Below, piece by piece: positions 52,588 to 64,000 of a stretch of DNA of 64,000 nucleotides. A program made the position numbers and the translations under genes. Each line of letters starts with the position of its first letter. Within the stretch, counting starts at the first letter, position 1. Source of the stretch: an uncultured Rivularia sp. (GTDB lineage: Bacteria; Cyanobacteriota; Cyanobacteriia; Cyanobacteriales; Nostocaceae); the NCBI GenBank assembly GCA_963665115.1, contig OY762007.1, positions 2,880,001 to 2,944,000 on the forward strand. Reading direction: 5' to 3'. Below the pieces are notes generated by a model. That model ran no database searches and was not told the origin of the DNA. It saw nothing but the letters and a program-made list of their open reading frames with translations.

Positions 52588-52659
52588 CTGGGGTGCTAGG
52601 ATTCGAACCTAGGAATGGCGAGACCAAAACCCGCTGCCTTACCACTTGGCGACACCCCA
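52588..52659 (-). tRNA. trnQ: tRNA-Gln(UUG)
   Basis: TGGGGTG acceptor stem, GCCAAGTGGTAAGGC D-arm, TTTTGGT anticodon loop, GGTTCGAATCC T-arm. Confidence 0.97.
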
Positions 52660-53307: not shown

Positions 53308-53902
53308 CAAGTAGTTAACAATAACGCATCTTTATTTTATAACTATATACATATCGCCAAAGAAATATTCGTATATCAAACTAATTAATACTTTTTCTAT
53401 TACTATCTACTAAGAATACTAAGCTTCTATACAATTACACATTTCAATTTTACATTAACTTTATATATATGTTAACTTCATAAATTATCCGGAATTAGTT
53501 ACCCATACTTACGTATATCTTTTAAGATTATACTTAATTGCCTACAGAGCTATACAGGGCTACCTAAAGCAAACATCTACCGCTACATACAGCAAGTTGC
53601 ACTCTTGTAACCGATGCCTTTTTGACTTAAATTCTCGGATCGGGGAAAATAATTTGGGTCAAATCTGTTAACGTGCCATGTTCTTTTTACTTATTCGTGC
53701 TTCAGCTAATACCTGATAGCTTGATAATGAGTACAAGTATCTACCAATAGTTATTTGGGTAACAACAAATATCAGGACATCTAAAACGATAAACTGTCTT
53801 GTAAGCTACTTGATATATCAAGTGATATCACTTATGTTAAAAAAAGTTTGATACAGGTTGCAGAGGAAAAATCAACAGATTAGAAAAAGGAAGTGTCCTA
53901 CA

Positions 53903-54205
53903 ATGATAACTTCAACAACAGATTCCATGATTTCGGAAAAATCTATAATAGTATCTGTGAAAAATCAAATTTCTTCCGATCTTGGTGGTGAAGCGGTGAT
54001 TTTAAACATGAACACCGGAACTTACCACGGTTTGAATGAAGTGGGTGCTTTTGTATGGAACTTGATTGATCAACCGCAAGTCGTAAAAGATATTCAACAA
54101 AAGCTTTTACAAGAGTACGAAATTGAAGCTTTAATTTGTACTAAAGATTTGTTTGCACTGCTTAACGATTTGCACGGTGAAGGGTTAATTGAAGTTAAGA
54201 ATTAA
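53903..54205 (+). CDS. PqqD-family RiPP recognition element (lasso B1), copy 1
   Basis: QISSDLGGEAVILN...YHGLNEVGAFVWNLI; RBS-like AAAGGAAG before the ATG at 53903. Confidence 0.92.
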   Translation: MITSTTDSMISEKSIIVSVKNQISSDLGGEAVILNMNTGTYHGLNEVGAFVWNLIDQPQVVKDIQQKLLQEYEIEALICTKDLFALLNDLHGEGLIEVKN

Positions 54206-54645
54206 ACGCCTGTGTAATTGTTTTAAATTTCTAGGTGTAATAGGTGCTTTCGATTAACTTCCGTATTTTACTTTCAGTTATCAGATTAGATTAGAACTGT
54301 GGTTTCTACCGTTTCGAGTTTTATTAAAAAAAGTTAGTTTACTCAAACTGTATTTAGGTCACGTATATTAAACCAAATTTCTGTCAGTAAAGTTATTTCG
54401 GCTGTAAATATAGCTACTTGCTATACACTTAGGCAATCAAAGTATTTCACACTATCGCGTTTACTACTAAGGTGTTGATGAGTCGTTGTGCTTGTCTTCT
54501 TGAACTTACAGGTATTATTTTCTGAGTAAGTAAAACTTTCTGGCTCATGCTGGGATTAAATACAAGAAAAGGGTTGTAATTAATTCCGTAAGTAAACCTT
54601 TAACGATTTATCTCACTACCATCTCTCGAAGGAATCAGATTATGA
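54195..54645 (+). pseudogene. Decayed lasso leader peptidase (B2)
   Basis: Fragments IRLELWFLPFRVLLK, SKVISAVNIATCY, AFTTKVLMS, AHAGIKY and ISLPSLEGIRL match the intact B2 at 60919; same ATGA overlap with the cyclase. Confidence 0.85.
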
Positions 54646-56672
54646 GCGGTATCGTAGGTATTTGCTACCTGGATAAAAGTCCTGTAGAACAACAAAATAT
54701 AGCGCGAATGATTGATACATTGGCGCATCGGGGACCTGATGGTGCAGACATCTGGGTAGATGGTTCTGTGGGCTTAGGACACCGGATGTTATGGACTACT
54801 CCTGAGTCTTTGATAGAAAAACTGCCTTTAGTCAATCAAAGGGGCGATATAGTTCTTACTTCTGATTGTCGCATAGATAATCGCGAAGAGTTGATTGCTG
54901 CATTACAGTTAAATAATCGTTCCTCCGAGAAAATTACTGATAGTGAATTAGTTCTGGGTGCCTATGAGAAATGGGGTGAAGAATGTCCGGAACATTTGTT
55001 AGGTGATTTTGTCTTTGCCATTTGGGATAAGCGAAAACAGACTTTGTTTTGTGCTAGAGATCATATGGGGGTTAAGCCATTTTATTATTTCCATCAGCCG
55101 GGTAAACTGTTTGCTTTTGGTAGCGAGATAAAAGCGCTGTTATCTTTGCAGGATGTACCGCGAAGGCTGAATGAAATTAAGGTAGGCGACTATCTAGCAT
55201 CAAATTTTCAAGATAAAGTTGAAACCTTTTATCAAGATATCTTTCGTCTTCCACCTGCGAGTTGTTTAACTTTAAATCGGAAAGGATTGCAAATTCGTTC
55301 TTATTGGTCTCTCGATCCAGAGCGCGAATTATGTTTAAGTTCTGATGAGGAGTATGCAGAGGCATTGCAGGAAATCTTTGCAGAATCAGTACGGTGTCGG
55401 TTGCGTAGCGCTTTTCCTGTAGGTTCTCATCTCAGTGGTGGACTGGATTCTTCTTCTGTCACCTGTATGGCACGGAAAATTTTAGAAGAAAAGAATTCTA
55501 AGTTACATACTTTCTCTAATATATTTGATACAGTTACTCAATGTGACGAACGCCCTTTTATCGAAGCTGTACTTGCTCAGGGCGGAATGAATCCTCACTA
55601 CGTCCACGGCGATGAACTCGGACCTCTATCAGACTTAAAACGAATCTTTAAATATCACGACGAAGTATTTTTTGGTCCCACTCATTTTCTAGTTTGGGTA
55701 GCCAACCTTGCAACAGAGAATCAAGGTATCCGAATTGTACTTGATGGCTTTGACGGCGATACCACAATTTCTCACGGTGATGGTTATTTTACCGAACTAG
55801 CACACAAAGGACAATGGGCTGCTTTTGCCAAGCAAGCGAATGATATTGTTCAACGTGCGGGGGGTGGTTCACCTTTAAATATTCTGAGGAGTTCTGGTCT
55901 TACTTATGTAGAAGACTTAGCACGAAAATCAAACTGGCTTGGTTTTGCCAAAGAAACTCGTCAGATATCCAAATACTTTGATATCTCCCAGCAACAGATT
56001 CTTGTGCAACATGGCTTAAAGCCATTGATTCCTGAGTCTGGGCGGCTAGCTTGGCGAAAACTACGCGGACACAATGAGCCGATGCTTAACGCCAATTGGC
56101 TATTTAACCGCAGCTTTGCTCAAAAAATCGGCTTGAAAAAACGTATTAAGGCTTTAGATGAATCTCAGTCTCATCTTCCCGTGACAGAAAGGGAGTATCA
56201 CTGGCGTTATCTAACTTGGGGCTTAGTCGGGTATGCGATGGAGACGTTGGATAAATCATATGCAACCTTTTCAATCGAAGCCCGTCATCCATTCATGGAT
56301 AAACGATTAATTGAATTTTGTCTCTCCTTACCGCCGCAGCAAAAGCTCAACCAAGGATGGACTCGCTTAGTTATGCGCCGTGCCATGCAGAATATTCTTC
56401 CCGAACAAGTGCAGTGGCGACAAACTAAATCTAAAATGACTGCTAGCTTTATACATGGGCTACTCAATCTAAACCGTCAGGTGTTAGATGATTTGATGCA
56501 AAATCACCTTGAGCCAATCGCTACCTACGTAGATATAAATGCTCTGCGTCAAGGCTATGAAAAATTGACATCTAGTAGCAAGATTGGTTCTTATGAAAAT
56601 TCCATATTAATTGAAATATGGAAAGCAGTTACCCTTAGCTTCTGGTTGCGTCACAGCCAGATTGAGTATTAA
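54642..56672 (+). CDS. Lasso peptide isopeptide-bond cyclase (C), copy 1
   Basis: Asparagine-synthetase fold with Ser at position 2 (no catalytic Cys), HRGPDG, LSGGLDSS, GFDGD, R-PF-D. Confidence 0.93.
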   Translation: MSGIVGICYLDKSPVEQQNIARMIDTLAHRGPDGADIWVDGSVGLGHRMLWTTPESLIEKLPLVNQRGDIVLTSDCRIDNREELIAALQLNNRSSEKITDSELVLGAYEKWGEECPEHLLGDFVFAIWDKRKQTLFCARDHMGVKPFYYFHQPGKLFAFGSEIKALLSLQDVPRRLNEIKVGDYLASNFQDKVETFYQDIFRLPPASCLTLNRKGLQIRSYWSLDPERELCLSSDEEYAEALQEIFAESVRCRLRSAFPVGSHLSGGLDSSSVTCMARKILEEKNSKLHTFSNIFDTVTQCDERPFIEAVLAQGGMNPHYVHGDELGPLSDLKRIFKYHDEVFFGPTHFLVWVANLATENQGIRIVLDGFDGDTTISHGDGYFTELAHKGQWAAFAKQANDIVQRAGGGSPLNILRSSGLTYVEDLARKSNWLGFAKETRQISKYFDISQQQILVQHGLKPLIPESGRLAWRKLRGHNEPMLNANWLFNRSFAQKIGLKKRIKALDESQSHLPVTEREYHWRYLTWGLVGYAMETLDKSYATFSIEARHPFMDKRLIEFCLSLPPQQKLNQGWTRLVMRRAMQNILPEQVQWRQTKSKMTASFIHGLLNLNRQVLDDLMQNHLEPIATYVDINALRQGYEKLTSSSKIGSYENSILIEIWKAVTLSFWLRHSQIEY

Positions 56673-56813: not shown

Positions 56814-57005
56814 ATGAAGAAAACTTACGAAGCACCCAAACTCACCAACCACGGTACAGTAGCTCAAATGACCAATTTCTTTGGTAAAGGAGATGGAGAC
56901 ACTTTAATTGGTCCAGGTCCCAATGATGACACAGGTAACCCTGGTGGTTCCATCGATGCTTGTGCAACATTCGACCAGGGCAACTGCTTCGGTAAAGATA
57001 ATTAA
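56814..57005 (+). CDS. Lasso peptide precursor A1
   Basis: Leader YEAPKLTNHG...MTN (YxxPxL, G, Thr-2); Asp8 in the predicted core; directly after the cyclase. Confidence 0.9.
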   Translation: MKKTYEAPKLTNHGTVAQMTNFFGKGDGDTLIGPGPNDDTGNPGGSIDACATFDQGNCFGKDN

Positions 57006-57020
57006 TTAAGTTTATGAAAG

Positions 57021-57368
57021 AAGCAAGCTGTGCAAATTTGACTGCAACTCGAATGTACATTAAAGGCTTACTTCTGACAAATTCAGCATTACCGAACAAG
57101 TTCTAATCTAATATGAGTACAATACTCATGCTTCAGGGAATTCATCTAATTTGATATCTGTATCTACCATCGAGAGTTCAAAGTCTGAATCAATTCACTT
57201 TGATAAAAGACTTTGAACCTCGACACCTAACAAAGCAATGTCGATTAATTCGTACCAATTTATTTGCTTGAGAAGTCAAAGTAAGCAATTGTAAATTCGA
57301 CTGCAACTCGAATGTACATCTAAAACTTAACTCTGACAATTTCAGCATTACCGAACAAGCTCTAATCT
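57021..57368. repeat. ~87-bp imperfect direct repeat (57021-57109 and 57283-57368) around a long hairpin
   Basis: Shared GACTGCAACTCGAATGTACAT and TTCAGCATTACCGAACAAG blocks. Confidence 0.85.
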
Positions 57369-57553: not shown

Positions 57554-58489
57554 ATGTTCACCTATTCTGCCTACAATCTTCGTATTGACTCTGAAATTTT
57601 CTTCTCCGAACTTGTAACTTCTCAGGAGGACTTAAGCCGAATCGAACAACTACCCCAAATAATCATACAGCAACGTGAAATCAATCGCTCAGAAATTAAA
57701 AATGCGAATGGTGGCGATCGCTTTGTAGGATATTTAGAAATAAATAAATTACAGTCGTGTAGGTTTTTAGTAGAATTTGGTCGCAAGATTGTGATTGAGC
57801 CTGTCTTAGGAATCGCAGACAATATTATTCGTCCCTGTATTCTCGGTCCGATATTTAGCGTACTGCTGAGGCAAAGAGGACTGCTGGTTGTCCATGCTAG
57901 TTGTGTTGGTATTGATGATGAAGCTGTTGCATTCCTTGGAAATTCAGGATGGGGTAAGTCAACCTTGGCTAATGCTTTTTATAACCAAGGATATCCCCTA
58001 CTTACCGATGATGTAATGGCAATTGAGATTAACAAAGGAAATGAAAGCAATGCAATTACTTTTCCTGCTTATCCCTGTGTGAAACTGCTGCCAGATTCGG
58101 CTGCCAGTTTAGGATACGATTTTGAGGAACTAGCTGTAATTAACTCAGGTTTACTCAAGCGTCATAACAGTCTTACTGAAAAATTTGTACAAAAGCCTTT
58201 ACCCGTCAAGCGAATATACGCATTAGAAAATATTGCAGCCCCTCGTCATGAAGTGCAAACGCTTTCTTCTCAAGATGCACTTGTAGAATTGGTTCGTCAT
58301 TCTCGTGTTACGAATTTATTGACTACTCCTGAATTCACTAGTGCTCATTTGCATCAATGTACGCAACTGATAAAAAAAGTACCTGTTTATCGTTTGAGAA
58401 GACAAAAAACGCTAGCCGCACTTCCCGATTTAGTAAAACTTATAGAAGATGACGTTGCCAAAAGTAATCGTGTAATATCATATACCTAA
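57554..58489 (+). CDS. HPr-kinase-like lasso peptide kinase, copy 1
   Basis: HAS, GNSGWGKST Walker A, LTDD. Confidence 0.85.
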   Translation: MFTYSAYNLRIDSEIFFSELVTSQEDLSRIEQLPQIIIQQREINRSEIKNANGGDRFVGYLEINKLQSCRFLVEFGRKIVIEPVLGIADNIIRPCILGPIFSVLLRQRGLLVVHASCVGIDDEAVAFLGNSGWGKSTLANAFYNQGYPLLTDDVMAIEINKGNESNAITFPAYPCVKLLPDSAASLGYDFEELAVINSGLLKRHNSLTEKFVQKPLPVKRIYALENIAAPRHEVQTLSSQDALVELVRHSRVTNLLTTPEFTSAHLHQCTQLIKKVPVYRLRRQKTLAALPDLVKLIEDDVAKSNRVISYT

Positions 58490-58583: not shown

Positions 58584-60398
58584 ATGCAAGCAGGCAAATT
58601 AAAAGAAAAATTCCAAAGTACGCAACGCCTATTGCCTGCTTTGCGACTGGTTTGGCAAAGTAGCCCTCGCTGGACGATCGCCCGCGTAGTAATTTTGATT
58701 GTTCAAGGTATTCTGCCTGTAGTGGGAATTTATCTGGGCAAACTAATTATAGATACAGTAGCAGCCAGCCTCACTACTGCCGATAAAACCGCAGCTTTTA
58801 ATAATGTAATATTTTTCGTTATCTTAGCAGCAGCAATCGCCCTATTAACTAACCTTGCTAACTCCCTCGGACAATTAGTTACTACCGCTCATTCCCAGCG
58901 AGTAACCGATTATATGCAGGGAATTATTCAAGCGAAATCAATTGCGGCAGATTTAGAATACTACGAAAATCCCGTATACTACGACGTATTACAAAGAGCG
59001 CAACAAGAAGCGCCTTACCGACCTCCGCAAATCCTAAATCGTTTGGCACAGGTTGGTCAAAATGCGATTACTTTAGTTGGGATGATTGCTTTACTGCTGT
59101 CGCTGCACTGGGGAATACCCGGTGTTCTTTTTGTTGCATCCTTTCCGGCTATGGTAGTGCGAGTAAAATATTCTCAGATAATGTATCGCTGGCAGCGCAA
59201 AAAAACACCAATGGAACGTCAGGCAGCTTACTTGGGCTATATGCTGACGGTAGACCAGTTTGCTAAAGAAATTCGTTTATTTAATTTAGGTTCTCACTTC
59301 TCTCAAGCGTATCTTCGCATCCGCAAACAGATATATAAAGAAAGTCTTGCGATTCTAACCGGACGTTCTTTAGCTAGTTTTGCAGTTGAGGCGATCGCCG
59401 CTATTTTAATTTTTGCAATTTATTCTTATATTATTTATCAAACTATCAACGGTGTGCTGCGTTTGGGGGATTTAGTCCTGTACTATCAAGCGTTGCAGCG
59501 GGGACAGGGCAATATCAAAGGTTTATTGAACAGTTTATCTGGACTTTATGAGGATAACTTGTTTCTGGCGAATCTCTACGAATTCCTTGATATTAAACCC
59601 AAGTTAATCGATCCTCCCAACCCCGAACCAATTCCTCATCCAATGAAAACTGGGATTGAATTTAAAAATGTCGGTTTTCAATATTCCACAACTACCCGTC
59701 AGGCACTTAAAAATATTAACCTGACAATTAAACCTGGGGAAGTAGTAGCCTTGGTGGGGGAAAATGGTTCAGGTAAAACTACTTTAATTAAACTTTTATG
59801 TAGATTGTACGACCCTACCGAAGGCAGAATTACCATCGATGGTATCGATCTAAGTCAATTTAAAACTGAAGAATTACGCCGTCAAATCAGCGTGATTTTT
59901 CAAGACTATGCAAAATATCACTTTACTGCTCAGGAAAATATTTGGTTGGGAAACATAGATTTACCACCGCAAAGCGACAGCATCATTAAAGCAGCACGGC
60001 GTTCTGGTGCGGATGATGTAATAAAAAAATTACCCAAAGGTTACGATACCATCTTGGGTAAATTATTTGACAAAGGCGAAGAACTTAGTATTGGACAGTG
60101 GCAAAAAGTTGCTTTAGCGCGGGCATTTTTGCGAGATTCCCAGCTAATTGTTTTGGATGAACCCACCAGCGCAATGGACCCCAAAGCAGAATATGAAGTG
60201 TTTGAAAAGTTCCGCCAATTAATTAAAAATCAATCCGCGATTTTGATTAGCCATCGCTTATCTACCGTGAAAATGGCCGATCGGATATACGTCATGGATA
60301 ATGGAACAATTGTCGAAGGTGGTACCCATCAGGAGTTGATGAAGTTGAAGGGTACCTACGCTCATTTGTTTGAAATACAAGCTAGTCAGTATATGTAA
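58584..60398 (+). CDS. ABC transporter, fused permease and ATPase (lasso D)
   Basis: GENGSGKTT, LSIGQWQK, LDEPTS, SHRLST. Confidence 0.93.
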   Translation: MQAGKLKEKFQSTQRLLPALRLVWQSSPRWTIARVVILIVQGILPVVGIYLGKLIIDTVAASLTTADKTAAFNNVIFFVILAAAIALLTNLANSLGQLVTTAHSQRVTDYMQGIIQAKSIAADLEYYENPVYYDVLQRAQQEAPYRPPQILNRLAQVGQNAITLVGMIALLLSLHWGIPGVLFVASFPAMVVRVKYSQIMYRWQRKKTPMERQAAYLGYMLTVDQFAKEIRLFNLGSHFSQAYLRIRKQIYKESLAILTGRSLASFAVEAIAAILIFAIYSYIIYQTINGVLRLGDLVLYYQALQRGQGNIKGLLNSLSGLYEDNLFLANLYEFLDIKPKLIDPPNPEPIPHPMKTGIEFKNVGFQYSTTTRQALKNINLTIKPGEVVALVGENGSGKTTLIKLLCRLYDPTEGRITIDGIDLSQFKTEELRRQISVIFQDYAKYHFTAQENIWLGNIDLPPQSDSIIKAARRSGADDVIKKLPKGYDTILGKLFDKGEELSIGQWQKVALARAFLRDSQLIVLDEPTSAMDPKAEYEVFEKFRQLIKNQSAILISHRLSTVKMADRIYVMDNGTIVEGGTHQELMKLKGTYAHLFEIQASQYM

Positions 60399-60617: not shown

Positions 60618-60935
60618 ATGACTTATCCACAACCTGACGTGCGCGAAATTGCAGAATCATCAATAGTAGTAGCTGCTGAAGAGCAAATCTCTTCCGACCT
60701 TGGCGGCGAATCAGTTATCCTGAACATGAAAACAGGAGTCTACCACGGTTTAAATGAAGTGGGTGCGCGGGTGTGGGATTTGATTGAGAAGCCAAAAGCT
60801 GTGAAAGAGATCAAACAGGTACTCCTCAAAGAGTACGAAGTTGAGCCAGATGTTTGCACCAACGACCTGTTCTCACTATTAAATAATTTAAAAACCGCAG
60901 GGCTAATTAAAGTAACAAATGAAACTGCTGCGTAA
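60618..60935 (+). CDS. PqqD-family RRE (lasso B1), copy 2
   Basis: QISSDLGGESVILN...YHGLNEVGARVWDLI. Confidence 0.93.
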   Translation: MTYPQPDVREIAESSIVVAAEEQISSDLGGESVILNMKTGVYHGLNEVGARVWDLIEKPKAVKEIKQVLLKEYEVEPDVCTNDLFSLLNNLKTAGLIKVTNETAA

Positions 60936-61356
60936 GCTTTGGAATCTGAGAAAAGTTAATTTTTACTTCTTATTTGTTACTTACTTTTTACTAGGAGCAA
61001 TTCGGTTAGGGTTGCTGTTGCTGGAATTTCGCATCTTATTAAAGATAATAAATAAACTTATTACGATAAATTTGCCACTCCCTAATGCTCGTTTAAGTCA
61101 AATTCTTTGGGGTGTCAATGTTGCAACCCGCTATATGCCAGGTGGTGCAAAGTGTTTAGCAAGAGCTTTAACTACTCAAGTATTGATGAGTCATAGTGGT
61201 TTTCCCCCGGAATTGTGCATAGGGGTTGCTAAAGGAGAGAAAGGAGAATTAGAAGCGCACGCTTGGATTAAATATCAGGGATACGTTGTTATCGGTTATC
61301 TACCAGATCTACCACGCTACATTCAACTACCATCCCTTGAAGGAATTAAATTATGA
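60919..61356 (+). CDS. Lasso leader peptidase B2 (transglutaminase-like)
   Basis: CLARAL catalytic Cys; AHAW His motif. Confidence 0.93.
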   Translation: MKLLRKLWNLRKVNFYFLFVTYFLLGAIRLGLLLLEFRILLKIINKLITINLPLPNARLSQILWGVNVATRYMPGGAKCLARALTTQVLMSHSGFPPELCIGVAKGEKGELEAHAWIKYQGYVVIGYLPDLPRYIQLPSLEGIKL

Positions 61357-63281
61357 GCGGCATCGTAGGTATTCACTACTTTGACGAACGTCCTGTAGAC
61401 CGCGAAAACTTAACAAAAATGGTTGATATATTGGCGCATCGCGGCCCAGATGGTGCAGATATCTGGGTTGATGGGTGCGTTGGTTTGGGACACAGGATGT
61501 TATGGACTACTCCCGAATCACTTATAGAAAAGCTACCTTTGGTAAATCAGAGGGGCGATTTAGTAATTACAGCAGATGCTCGGATTGACAATCGCGATGA
61601 ATTGATAGCTGCTTTACAGATAAATAATCGTCCTGCTGATAAGATTACAGATAGCGAGCTGATACTGGCAGCATACGGGAAATGGGGCGAAGATTGCCCA
61701 AAGCATTTATTAGGTGACTTTGCATTTGCGATTTGGGATCGGCGTAAGCAGATGTTATTTTGCGCTAGAGACCATTTTGGGGTGAAGCCTTTCTACTATT
61801 ACTCTGCTAACAATACTTTTGTTTTTGGTAGCGAGATAAAAGCAATCTTTTGTTTACCAGAGGTTCCTCGTGAGATTAATGAGGTAAAAGTTGCTGAGTA
61901 CTTATCTATAGAAACAGACGATAAAAGTATCACTTTTTATAATGACATTTTGCGGCTTCCTCCTGCCTGTAAAATGATTGTAAAGAGTAAAACTGTGGAA
62001 TTACAGTCTTATTGGTCTCTTGATTTTACTCGCGAGTTGCGATTGAGTTCGGACGAAGAATATGCAGATACTTTCCGTAAAATCTTTACTGAAGCAGTAC
62101 GCTGTAGATTGCGTAGCGCTTTTCCTATAGGCTCAATGTTAAGCGGTGGCTTGGATTCTTCGTCTATCACCTGTGTAGCACGGAAGTTCATCGCAGAGAA
62201 AGAAGAAAAAAATAAATTACACACTTTCTCAGCAGTTTTTGATAAAGTAACCGAATGCGATGAGCGTGTTTTTCAAGATGCAGTTCTTGCCCAAGGAAAT
62301 ATTGAACCGCATCACTTTCATGCTGATGGATTCAGTCCTTTAACCGATTTTGAACAAGTTCTTTGGCATCAAGATGAAGCTTATTCTGCTGGTAACTTAT
62401 ATTTAAATTGGAATCTTTATAAACCTGCTAGAAAAAATGGTGTTCGCGTTATTTTAGATGGATTTGATGGAGACAGTACCGTATCTCATGGTTTAGGATA
62501 TTTAACTGAATTAGCCAGTAAGGAGCAATGGTTTCAATTAGCTATACATATAAGAAATTACTGTACAAGAATAGGTAAACCTTGGCAAGAAGACTTATGG
62601 AGTTGGATATGGGTTTATAAAATTAATCCTATTATTTGCAAATCTCGCATTCTTACTAAAGCATGGCGCAAATCACAAAAATTGTTTCAAAAAAATCAAC
62701 TTCAAAAACCAGCTTGGAGAAGATTAATTAATTCAGAATTTGTTAAGCAAATTAACTTAATTGAGCGTCTAAGAAATCAACCAAATCCCCCAACAACCGA
62801 ACGGGAAACACAATACCGTTGTTTGATGGAAGCAGGTATGGTTCGTACTCTGGAAAATTTAGATAGAACAGCAAAAGCATATGGAATTGAACTTCGGTTT
62901 CCTTTCTGGGATAAGCGGCTTATAGAATTCTGTCTATCTTTACCTCCGGAGCAAAAGATATCAAAGGGTTGGACTCGGATGGTAATGCGTCGAGCGATGA
63001 AAGATATCCTACCGCAAAAAGTGCAATGGCGAGTCGGTAAATCAAATATGCATCCAGGATTTGAAAGAGGATTGCTCGAATTTGAGCGATTGCGCTTAGA
63101 GCAAATCATTTTACATAACCCGAAAGTAATTGAAAAGTATGTAAATATCGCTGCCCTACAGCAAGCATATCACCGCTACCTGTCTAAACAAGCAACAGTG
63201 GAAGAAGTTAACTCTATTTGGAAAGCTTTTTCTCTAGCTCTGTGGTTAGAACACAAGAATTTGCCAAAACAGAGCTTGTAA
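61353..63281 (+). CDS. Lasso peptide cyclase (C), copy 2
   Basis: Paralog of 54642; LSGGLDSS, GFDGD, RFPFWD. Confidence 0.93.
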   Translation: MSGIVGIHYFDERPVDRENLTKMVDILAHRGPDGADIWVDGCVGLGHRMLWTTPESLIEKLPLVNQRGDLVITADARIDNRDELIAALQINNRPADKITDSELILAAYGKWGEDCPKHLLGDFAFAIWDRRKQMLFCARDHFGVKPFYYYSANNTFVFGSEIKAIFCLPEVPREINEVKVAEYLSIETDDKSITFYNDILRLPPACKMIVKSKTVELQSYWSLDFTRELRLSSDEEYADTFRKIFTEAVRCRLRSAFPIGSMLSGGLDSSSITCVARKFIAEKEEKNKLHTFSAVFDKVTECDERVFQDAVLAQGNIEPHHFHADGFSPLTDFEQVLWHQDEAYSAGNLYLNWNLYKPARKNGVRVILDGFDGDSTVSHGLGYLTELASKEQWFQLAIHIRNYCTRIGKPWQEDLWSWIWVYKINPIICKSRILTKAWRKSQKLFQKNQLQKPAWRRLINSEFVKQINLIERLRNQPNPPTTERETQYRCLMEAGMVRTLENLDRTAKAYGIELRFPFWDKRLIEFCLSLPPEQKISKGWTRMVMRRAMKDILPQKVQWRVGKSNMHPGFERGLLEFERLRLEQIILHNPKVIEKYVNIAALQQAYHRYLSKQATVEEVNSIWKAFSLALWLEHKNLPKQSL

Positions 63282-63830: not shown

Positions 63831-64000
63831 ATGTATTTTTATAAAGCATACGGTCTTTTATTTCGCTGTAGCTTTGATTTACCAGAATTTATCACTACTG
63901 AAGAAGCAGAACCTGATGTTGTAATCACTCGGGGTAAGATAGAACATTCTTTTCCCGAGCATATACCCGCCCAAGGCTACTTTTATGCTACAGAAAATGA
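63831..64000 (+). CDS. 5' part of a second HPr-kinase-like lasso kinase
   Basis: MYFYKAYGLLFRCSFDLPEF...PDVVIT resembles MFTYSAYNLRIDSEIFFSEL of copy 1; same position after the precursor. Confidence 0.7.
   Translation, partial: MYFYKAYGLLFRCSFDLPEFITTEEAEPDVVITRGKIEHSFPEHIPAQGYFYATEN

Follow-up and report, generated by a model that had tools for sequence, protein, structure and literature searches.

We find that A1, a small gene in the 64,000-nt stretch of DNA analysed here (the window), encodes a lasso peptide precursor that, judged by its sequence, is a typical member of an uncharacterised long-core subfamily within a known profile family. The A1 group is widespread in cyanobacteria, with many predicted precursors like A1 itself. 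We propose that A1 gives rise to a 42-residue lasso peptide that has a Phe1-Asp8 ring, is likely to contain a Cys29-Cys37 disulfide, and is likely to be phosphorylated on Ser25 by the kinase encoded next to it, K1. Taken whole, this model seems to us about evenly poised between right and wrong. Its basis is precursor anatomy, gene set, conservation and kinase grouping, established by sequence and profile comparison.

The A1 precursor

A1 consists of a leader and a core, whose parts are located as follows.

56814-57005, + strand: A1 open reading frame, 63 aa with an ATG start, divided into leader (21 aa) and core (42 aa)
56814..56876, + strand: A1 leader, 21 aa, with the pattern YxxPxL...G...T(-2), assigned from sequence and from NF033528 and NF033521 scores above cut-off
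56877..57005, + strand: A1 core, 42 aa and stop codon, predicted to form a lasso peptide, assigned from sequence and conservation in relatives
56898..56900, + strand: codon of Asp8, predicted isopeptide acceptor, invariant in 85 aligned relatives
56946..56963, + strand: conserved GSIDAC block, with Ser25 (proposed kinase site) at 56949-56951 and Cys29 at 56961-56963
56985..56987, + strand: codon of Cys37, predicted disulfide partner of Cys29 on the basis of even Cys counts and spacing

We regard A1 as a genuine open reading frame and not a chance one. Among NCBIfam profiles, it matched NF033528 (lasso_cyano) with 42 bits (cut-off 33), a match that spans residues 1-26 only and thus mostly the leader, and NF033521 with 20.2 bits (cut-off 19). 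The leader carries the YxxPxL motif and Thr(-2) of lasso precursors (Tyr(-17), Pro(-14), Leu(-12), Gly(-8), Thr(-2)). Cleavage by the Thr(-2) rule yields the 42-aa core starting with Phe that had been described beforehand, and conservation backs this site. Cleavage at two other leader Thr residues was rejected because no Asp or Glu would then fall at core positions 7-9. The core begins with Phe-Phe-Gly, includes Asp6, Asp8, Cys29 and Cys37, and is acidic (7 Asp, 2 Lys). Its sole Ser, Ser25, sits in a conserved GS-x-D motif. It ends in Asn, in agreement with the earlier statement that a C-terminal Ser is lacking.

A scan of the whole genome for the leader motif printed seven matches, two of them A1 and the second precursor of this cluster, A2. 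The other five were judged to be non-precursors on inspection of their sequences. The DNA of A1 was identical in contigs of three public runs, which may be the source sample, and no assembly artefact was seen in it. Pfam has no family for A1. A PDB sequence search with A1 returned only leader matches, to other lasso leaders, and a promoter and terminator scan around A1 gave matches at chance level. In the ESM Atlas, relatives of A1 fell into unnamed hypothetical clusters, one mostly of Cyanobacteriota and two with few Gemmatimonadota records, which we take as a lead only. An AlphaFold2 prediction of the linear precursor from 85 alignment rows was uninformative (pLDDT 67, pTM 0.32, core without secondary structure).

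Conservation of the predicted ring and the cysteine pair

We assembled a set of 102 related proteins, A1 included, and aligned 85 of them, omitting those that were short, unrelated or long-extended. In this alignment, which has a mean column identity of 18%, Pro8, Thr20 and Asp29 of A1 (Asp29 is core Asp8) were invariant and Ser46 (core Ser25) was at least 90% conserved. Asp8 lies within core positions 7-9, where lasso acceptors are expected. We rejected Asp6 as the ring acceptor; it is outside positions 7-9 and is not conserved, occurring in only one of the 14 cores with an acceptor at position 8, namely A1. Since Asp8 is invariant and Asp6 is variable, conservation supports the Phe1-Asp8 ring of the preliminary description.

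Of 69 Cys-bearing cores, 57 fit the motif. The predicted ring has nine residues in 45 of these, eight in 11 and ten in one, so the eight-residue ring of A1 is the rarer type and most relatives have a nine-residue ring. The distance from acceptor to Ser is 16 in 31 of the 57 cores (range 12-28) and the two Cys are spaced 7-9 apart in 41; the Ser-x-x-x-Cys spacing was fixed by the search motif itself. Separately, six relatives (L066:9872, L036, P0047, P0049, P0051 and P0053) have their sole acceptor Asp at core position 10, which would give a natural ten-residue ring if used. One core among the relatives with an acceptor at this position is 58 aa long.

For counts over whole cores we dropped one protein off the leader pattern and one multi-leader protein, which left 100. 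These cores contain no Cys in 31 cases, two in 64 and four in five; the count is never odd. The even counts, together with conservation, support the predicted Cys29-Cys37 disulfide. A1 has exactly two Cys, neither of them in the ring, as in class IV lasso peptides, and it is plausible that both lie below the ring. We infer that a long loop, tolerant of insertions, leads into a fixed G-S-I/L-D-A-C block and then a disulfide ring. With the threading point set at this block or immediately ahead of it, the peptide becomes class IV-like, a placement that is our own reading of the pattern. The top LassoPred loop predictions for close relatives ranged from 6 to 29 residues and disagreed with one another.

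How unusual is the core?

A1 had been singled out for a very long core and for a Phe start. Both features stand out against characterised lassos. Their cores measure 13-33 aa, the upper end being pandonodin, in the available text of a 2026 review (PMC13352647). In the accessible part of the LassoPred data (PMC12214591), the longest of 28 PDB-linked rows is 33 aa and the first residue is Gly in 20, Cys in three, Ser in two, Leu in two, Asp in one and Phe in none. Neither feature stands out among the relatives of A1. The 100 related cores have a median of 41 aa (range 14-58), 42 of them being at least 42 aa long, and their first residues include Ala (25), Phe (21), Ile (16) and Val (10); this set was chosen by likeness to A1 and a few of its members are not true relatives. 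Thus, A1 is unusual only when it is set against characterised lassos.

The picture of A1 as a lone oddity is not supported either. Phe-starting, two-Cys cyanobacterial cores of 40 aa are already present in the public LassoPred table. The accessible part of its supplement lists seven cyanobacterial cores of 39-46 aa, five with two Cys and two with Phe first, and gives neither names nor structures for them (PMC12214591). NF033528 matched 84 of the 85 aligned relatives (E up to 0.01). A profile scan of 401 sampled genomes of the order hit 84, mostly via the leader. In the literature covered, which was mostly non-subscription, we found no characterised member of the long-core subfamily, though a prior description is possible; the same literature yielded no paper for 'cyanobacterial lasso peptide' or for an internal-serine lasso kinase. 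The GS-x-D motif may already be visible in the clade logos of the RODEO supplement.

A cluster with two lasso modules

The genes around A1 are arranged in the order RRE1, C1, A1, K1, ABC exporter, RRE2, B2, C2, A2, K2 and nucleotidyltransferase.

53858..54205, + strand: RRE1 (PqqD family, B1), PF05402; NF033536 77 bits, cut-off 80; the likelier start is an ATG at 53903
54642..56672, + strand: cyclase C1, 676 aa; NF033535 1030 bits, cut-off 525
57031..57109, + strand: 79-nt non-coding repeat, copy 1
57290..57368, + strand: 79-nt non-coding repeat, copy 2, 87% identical to copy 1
57554..58489, + strand: HprK-like kinase K1, 311 aa; weak HprK-related matches below cut-off, invariant columns and tree
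58584..60398, + strand: MsbA-like ABC exporter, 604 aa; profile matches
60618..60935, + strand: RRE2 (B1); NF033536 81.6 bits, cut-off 80
60919..61356, + strand: leader peptidase B2; NF033537 93 bits, cut-off 33; Cys79 and His114 present
61353..63281, + strand: cyclase C2, 642 aa; NF033535 937 bits; 52% identical to C1
63501..63669, + strand: second precursor A2, frameshifted at a G-run (63579), 6.7 kb downstream of A1
63831..64000 in the window and on to 64751 beyond it, + strand: second kinase K2, 306 aa, with only its start inside the window
64899-66029, beyond the window and after K2: NTP_transf_5 nucleotidyltransferase

With cyclase (NF033535), B2 peptidase (NF033537) and RRE (NF033536) genes adjacent, we judge the lasso cluster to be complete in its core enzymes. 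B2 is the only leader peptidase found in it. The genome is that of a cyanobacterium, and the closest relatives of the cyclase, at 91% identity, come from records labelled Rivularia.

The downstream frame of A2 has one Asp, two Cys and a terminal Ser, like an intact relative. The cluster thus comprises two lasso modules that share one peptidase and one exporter. The same two-cyclase layout also occurs in related loci. The extra base in A2 is absent from contigs of two of the three covering runs (X1, X2) and the frameshift is also present in X3. Thus, the break varies among near-identical samples.

Wzc-like and glycosyltransferase genes flank the cluster. A scan of 50 of the 73 flanking ORFs found polysaccharide-related neighbours at 10 of 19 K1-type loci; four of the ten are syntenic relatives. 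Several other elements were seen in or near these clusters. The 79-nt direct repeat lies between A1 and K1 and has only two copies in the genome, and two to four copies are found at the corresponding position of each of three related loci (L001, L002, L006); it had no Rfam match and showed just a 5-bp hairpin without compensatory changes. A tRNA gene (window 52588-52659, - strand, Rfam RF00005), whose anticodon we read as TTG (Gln), stands between the wzc-like gene and the cluster. At one related locus, an IS605/TnpB-like gene lies directly upstream of the cluster (L009:6618-7874). At another, the region 3-6 kb upstream of the lasso cyclase contains an APH phosphotransferase gene and a HopA1-family gene (L066:2011-4280), which may form a dehydration system of their own.

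The kinase K1 and Ser25

K1 is an HprK-like kinase that keeps His114, the Walker A motif and Asp152-Asp153; the corresponding residues matter in BsfK, according to the available text of PMC10368454. We built trees from kinases encoded within 2.5 kb of a precursor, with 31 and then 65 rows. K1 falls in a 25-row group that forms one side of a branch at 99/97 (one long-branch row dropped). The 40 distinct cores that neighbour this group have a median length of 42 aa, and 20 of them contain at least two Cys. A terminal Ser is absent from all of them; S-x-[DN] occurs beyond position 18 in 34 and six fail this rule, with rule and group both drawn from the same sequences. Next to the other 40 kinases lie 55 cores with a median length of 24. 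Ser is the final residue in 13 of these and falls within the final four in 33, and four have S-x-[DN]; the frameshifted A2 was excluded from this comparison, and the set includes some non-lasso and spurious ORFs. C2 and K2 group in the trees with the enzymes of terminal-Ser precursors.

We also examined new metagenome loci, scanning with the kinase alignment because the precursor alignment was too variable. Both genes were present at 28 of 80 loci, and 24 kinases were entered into the tree. Three of the 24 joined the K1 group, all beside GS-x-[DN] cores, and these are close kin of earlier rows. By our own reading, one of the 21 cores outside the K1 group has a late S-x-D.

The simplest reading is that K1 is likely to act on Ser25. 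The preliminary description had held that, for want of a terminal Ser, the adjacent kinase would need another target. This stands insofar as the site would not be a terminal Ser, none of the 40 K1-group cores ending in one. Another target peptide is probably not needed, since Ser25 is conserved and tracks with the K1 group. A complex prediction for K1 with ATP, Mg and the A1 core scored 0.02, which gives no verdict and is not evidence either way.

Other kinase-bearing loci differ in their precursors. Tail-Ser-free lasso precursors at L082, L119 and L125 share a late Thr motif and have their own kinase subgroup, which suggests a Thr site. Four loci (L076, L080, L085, L154) encode peptides that bear the leader but lack an Asp or Glu acceptor, and a cyclase was not seen in the fetched stretch; they have a kinase, B2, RRE, exporter and nucleotidyltransferase and are possibly an LPP-like linear phosphopeptide system. 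L144:6153-7319 encodes four leader-bearing precursors with long RGG-repeat cores next to an RRE, B2, kinase, exporter and nucleotidyltransferase, again with no cyclase in the fetched stretch. L120, L121 and L122 have arrays of four to five long two-Cys precursors and a second kinase-like gene after the exporter.

A model for A1 maturation

Established lasso chemistry consists of leader binding by the RRE, a B2 cut after the Thr(-2) position, adenylation of the acceptor with ring closure, and ABC export (PMC13352647, available text). On this basis, we propose that the RRE would bind the YxxPxL leader of A1 and that K1 would then probably phosphorylate Ser25 in the GS-x-D motif of the linear precursor, before cyclisation. 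In pseudomycoidin, the phosphate is glycosylated by PsmN and a phospho-glycosyl lock has been proposed (PMC6993621, available text). By analogy, the nucleotidyltransferase may add a sugar (hexose) to the Ser25 phosphate, an addition that we put forward with some reserve. The single B2 would very probably cleave between Asn(-1) and Phe1, and C1 would also very probably adenylate Asp8 and join the Phe1 amine to it around the chain. Residues 9 to about 24 would form the loop and G-G-S would thread the ring, with phospho-Ser25 and the disulfide ring as the lower stopper in a class IV-like manner; we consider this topology slightly favoured. The ABC exporter would secrete the acidic peptide, which has a net charge of about -5 before the phosphate is added. 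The calculated monoisotopic mass is 4172.78 for the ring form, 4170.76 once the disulfide is closed and 4250.73 with the phosphate as well. We further propose that C1-A1-K1 (internal Ser) and C2-A2-K2 (terminal Ser) act as two modules that share B2 and the exporter.

On a broader and more tentative level, we hypothesize a subfamily of giant lassos with cores of about 30-58 aa, a hydrophobic first residue and often an 8-10-residue ring, served by its own kinase lineage. Its internal Ser, at the threading point, might be phosphorylated and maybe glycosylated, so that a phospho-sugar and the disulfide ring form the lock of what would be the longest natural lassos. This Ser might correspond to the terminal Ser of paeninodin-like peptides, with the core extended past it. 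As for function, a component of the sheath or matrix or an exopolysaccharide-linked signal, rather than an antibiotic, is a guess that we rate as somewhat unlikely to be right.

Alternative explanations

The lasso could be as long as predicted and Ser25 could be kept for structure, as a small residue at the threading point, with K1 acting on a Thr, on the other precursor or on a non-peptide substrate, or being idle. A segment that passes through the ring is well served by small residues, and Gly is frequent in the motif. In addition, several other lasso kinases adjoin cores without any tail Ser, and a kinase-free control cluster was not found among the cluster maps of this type, all of which have a kinase-like ORF. 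Because kinase and precursor genes are passed on together, linkage alone could produce the tree pattern and the association cannot separate a kinase site from a structural residue. Against this reading, 54 of the 57 cores have Ser at the motif position and three have Thr, in a search that allowed only these two, and Ser also predominates in the unconstrained alignment. This suggests that the hydroxyl is conserved and not merely a small side chain. Apart from Thr20 of the leader, no Thr of A1 is conserved, and only 28 cores have Thr directly following the acceptor. A2 comes with a kinase of its own, and the catalytic residues of K1 are intact. We consider a purely structural Ser25 unlikely and continue to favour phosphorylation by K1.

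The remaining alternatives concern the shape of the product. Threading could occur later, so that the loop holds either Cys29 alone, with Cys37 left in the tail, or both Cys; such a topology would fall outside the four disulfide classes. In the accessible LassoPred output, two relatives have the motif Asp as first plug, with second and third choices after the first Cys, and two others have a first plug near the last Cys. However, the chains of Cys-free relatives stop shortly beyond the motif, with a few beta-branched residues, which suggests that all of them thread at the motif or ahead of it, and the published loop record in the available review text is 20 residues (PMC13352647). Late threading thus appears improbable. 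The product could also be shorter, its long tail trimmed by a protease, or an unthreaded branched ring held by the disulfide only. No characterised lasso in the accessible parts of PMC12214591 and PMC13352647 exceeds 33 aa, carboxypeptidase trimming of tails is common (PMC13352647, same text), and the eight-residue ring is rich in Gly. But no part of the core is better conserved than the far C-terminal motif and the Cys pair, so that discarding them is hard to explain, and the cyclase is a full-length lasso cyclase; we hold a trimmed or unthreaded product to be very improbable. Finally, phospho-Ser25 could be eliminated to dehydroalanine and form a thioether with Cys, or the Cys pair could bind a metal. 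The Ser-Cys distance is fixed at four residues, and a dehydroalanine-containing lasso appears by title among the references of the review (PMC13352647, available portion). Still, no lyase or lanthionine cyclase gene was seen in the cluster map, and strictly even Cys counts with 31 of 100 cores free of Cys speak against this reading, which would surprise us greatly. A threaded lasso with a tail disulfide remains our preferred structure.

Significance

If it is made whole, the A1 product would be longer than any lasso described in the review text available to us (13-33 aa, PMC13352647). A cyclase that natively threads cores of 40-58 residues, with a bulky first residue and an insertion-tolerant loop, would widen the scaffold space for engineering; the same review states that enlarged lasso loops have not been reported. 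With the internal-Ser kinase group, the reason for lasso phosphorylation also becomes open to direct test, as one cluster has both types of module. What is added here is the picture of a subfamily and a testable internal kinase site.

Comparison with known systems

Comparisons with published systems in this section draw on the accessible parts of the cited sources. The nearest systems are NF033528 lasso_cyano precursors with NF033535 cyclases and cyanobacterial LassoPred rows such as WP_017317180, WP_169263806 and WP_193919667. The cores of the listed relatives are 39-46 aa long and share the motif of A1 and a pair of Cys, and Phe comes first in two. These rows carry no family name or PDB entry, and the eight-residue ring of A1 is the rarer one among such peptides.

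Among class IV lassos, we compared A1 with pandonodin (PDB 6Q1X), LP2006 and related peptides. Pandonodin has an eight-residue ring on Asp8, a late Cys pair and a long tail, as predicted for the A1 product. It differs in being 33 aa long and Gly-first with Cys four apart, whereas A1 is 42 aa long and Phe-first with Cys eight apart. The pandonodin cluster that was expressed is panABCD (PMC7549694), while A1 has a kinase next door. The class II peptides achromonodin-1 and ubonodin have loops of up to 20 residues, near the 16-17 proposed for A1, but they are 28-30 aa long, lack Cys, start with Gly and have two-residue tails.

The gene set most resembles those of paeninodin and pseudomycoidin (pade, psm), which likewise have split B1/B2, a cyclase, an HprK-like kinase, an ABC exporter and a nucleotidyltransferase (PMC6993621). 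Paeninodin-type clusters are often found beside capsular polysaccharide loci, as here (PMC13381572). In paeninodin and pseudomycoidin, however, the C-terminal Ser is phosphorylated and the leaders are WxxP (PMC6993621, PMC13381572), whereas A1 ends in Asn and has a YxxP leader. A2, and not A1, is the closer counterpart of their precursors. The Bsf lasso and the LPP linear phosphopeptides also rely on HprK-like kinases, BsfK and LppK, that act with help from an RRE on a non-terminal Ser, namely ring Ser3 for BsfK (PMC10368454) and S3 for LppK (PMC13381572). Bsf-type precursors are defined by Ser/Thr3 and Ile/Val(-2) (PMC10368454), and A1 has Gly3 and Thr(-2). By these defining features, we place A1 in neither the paeninodin type nor the Bsf type. 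As the predicted ring of A1 has no Ser or Thr, the proposed Ser25 would be a third position for a kinase site in these peptides.
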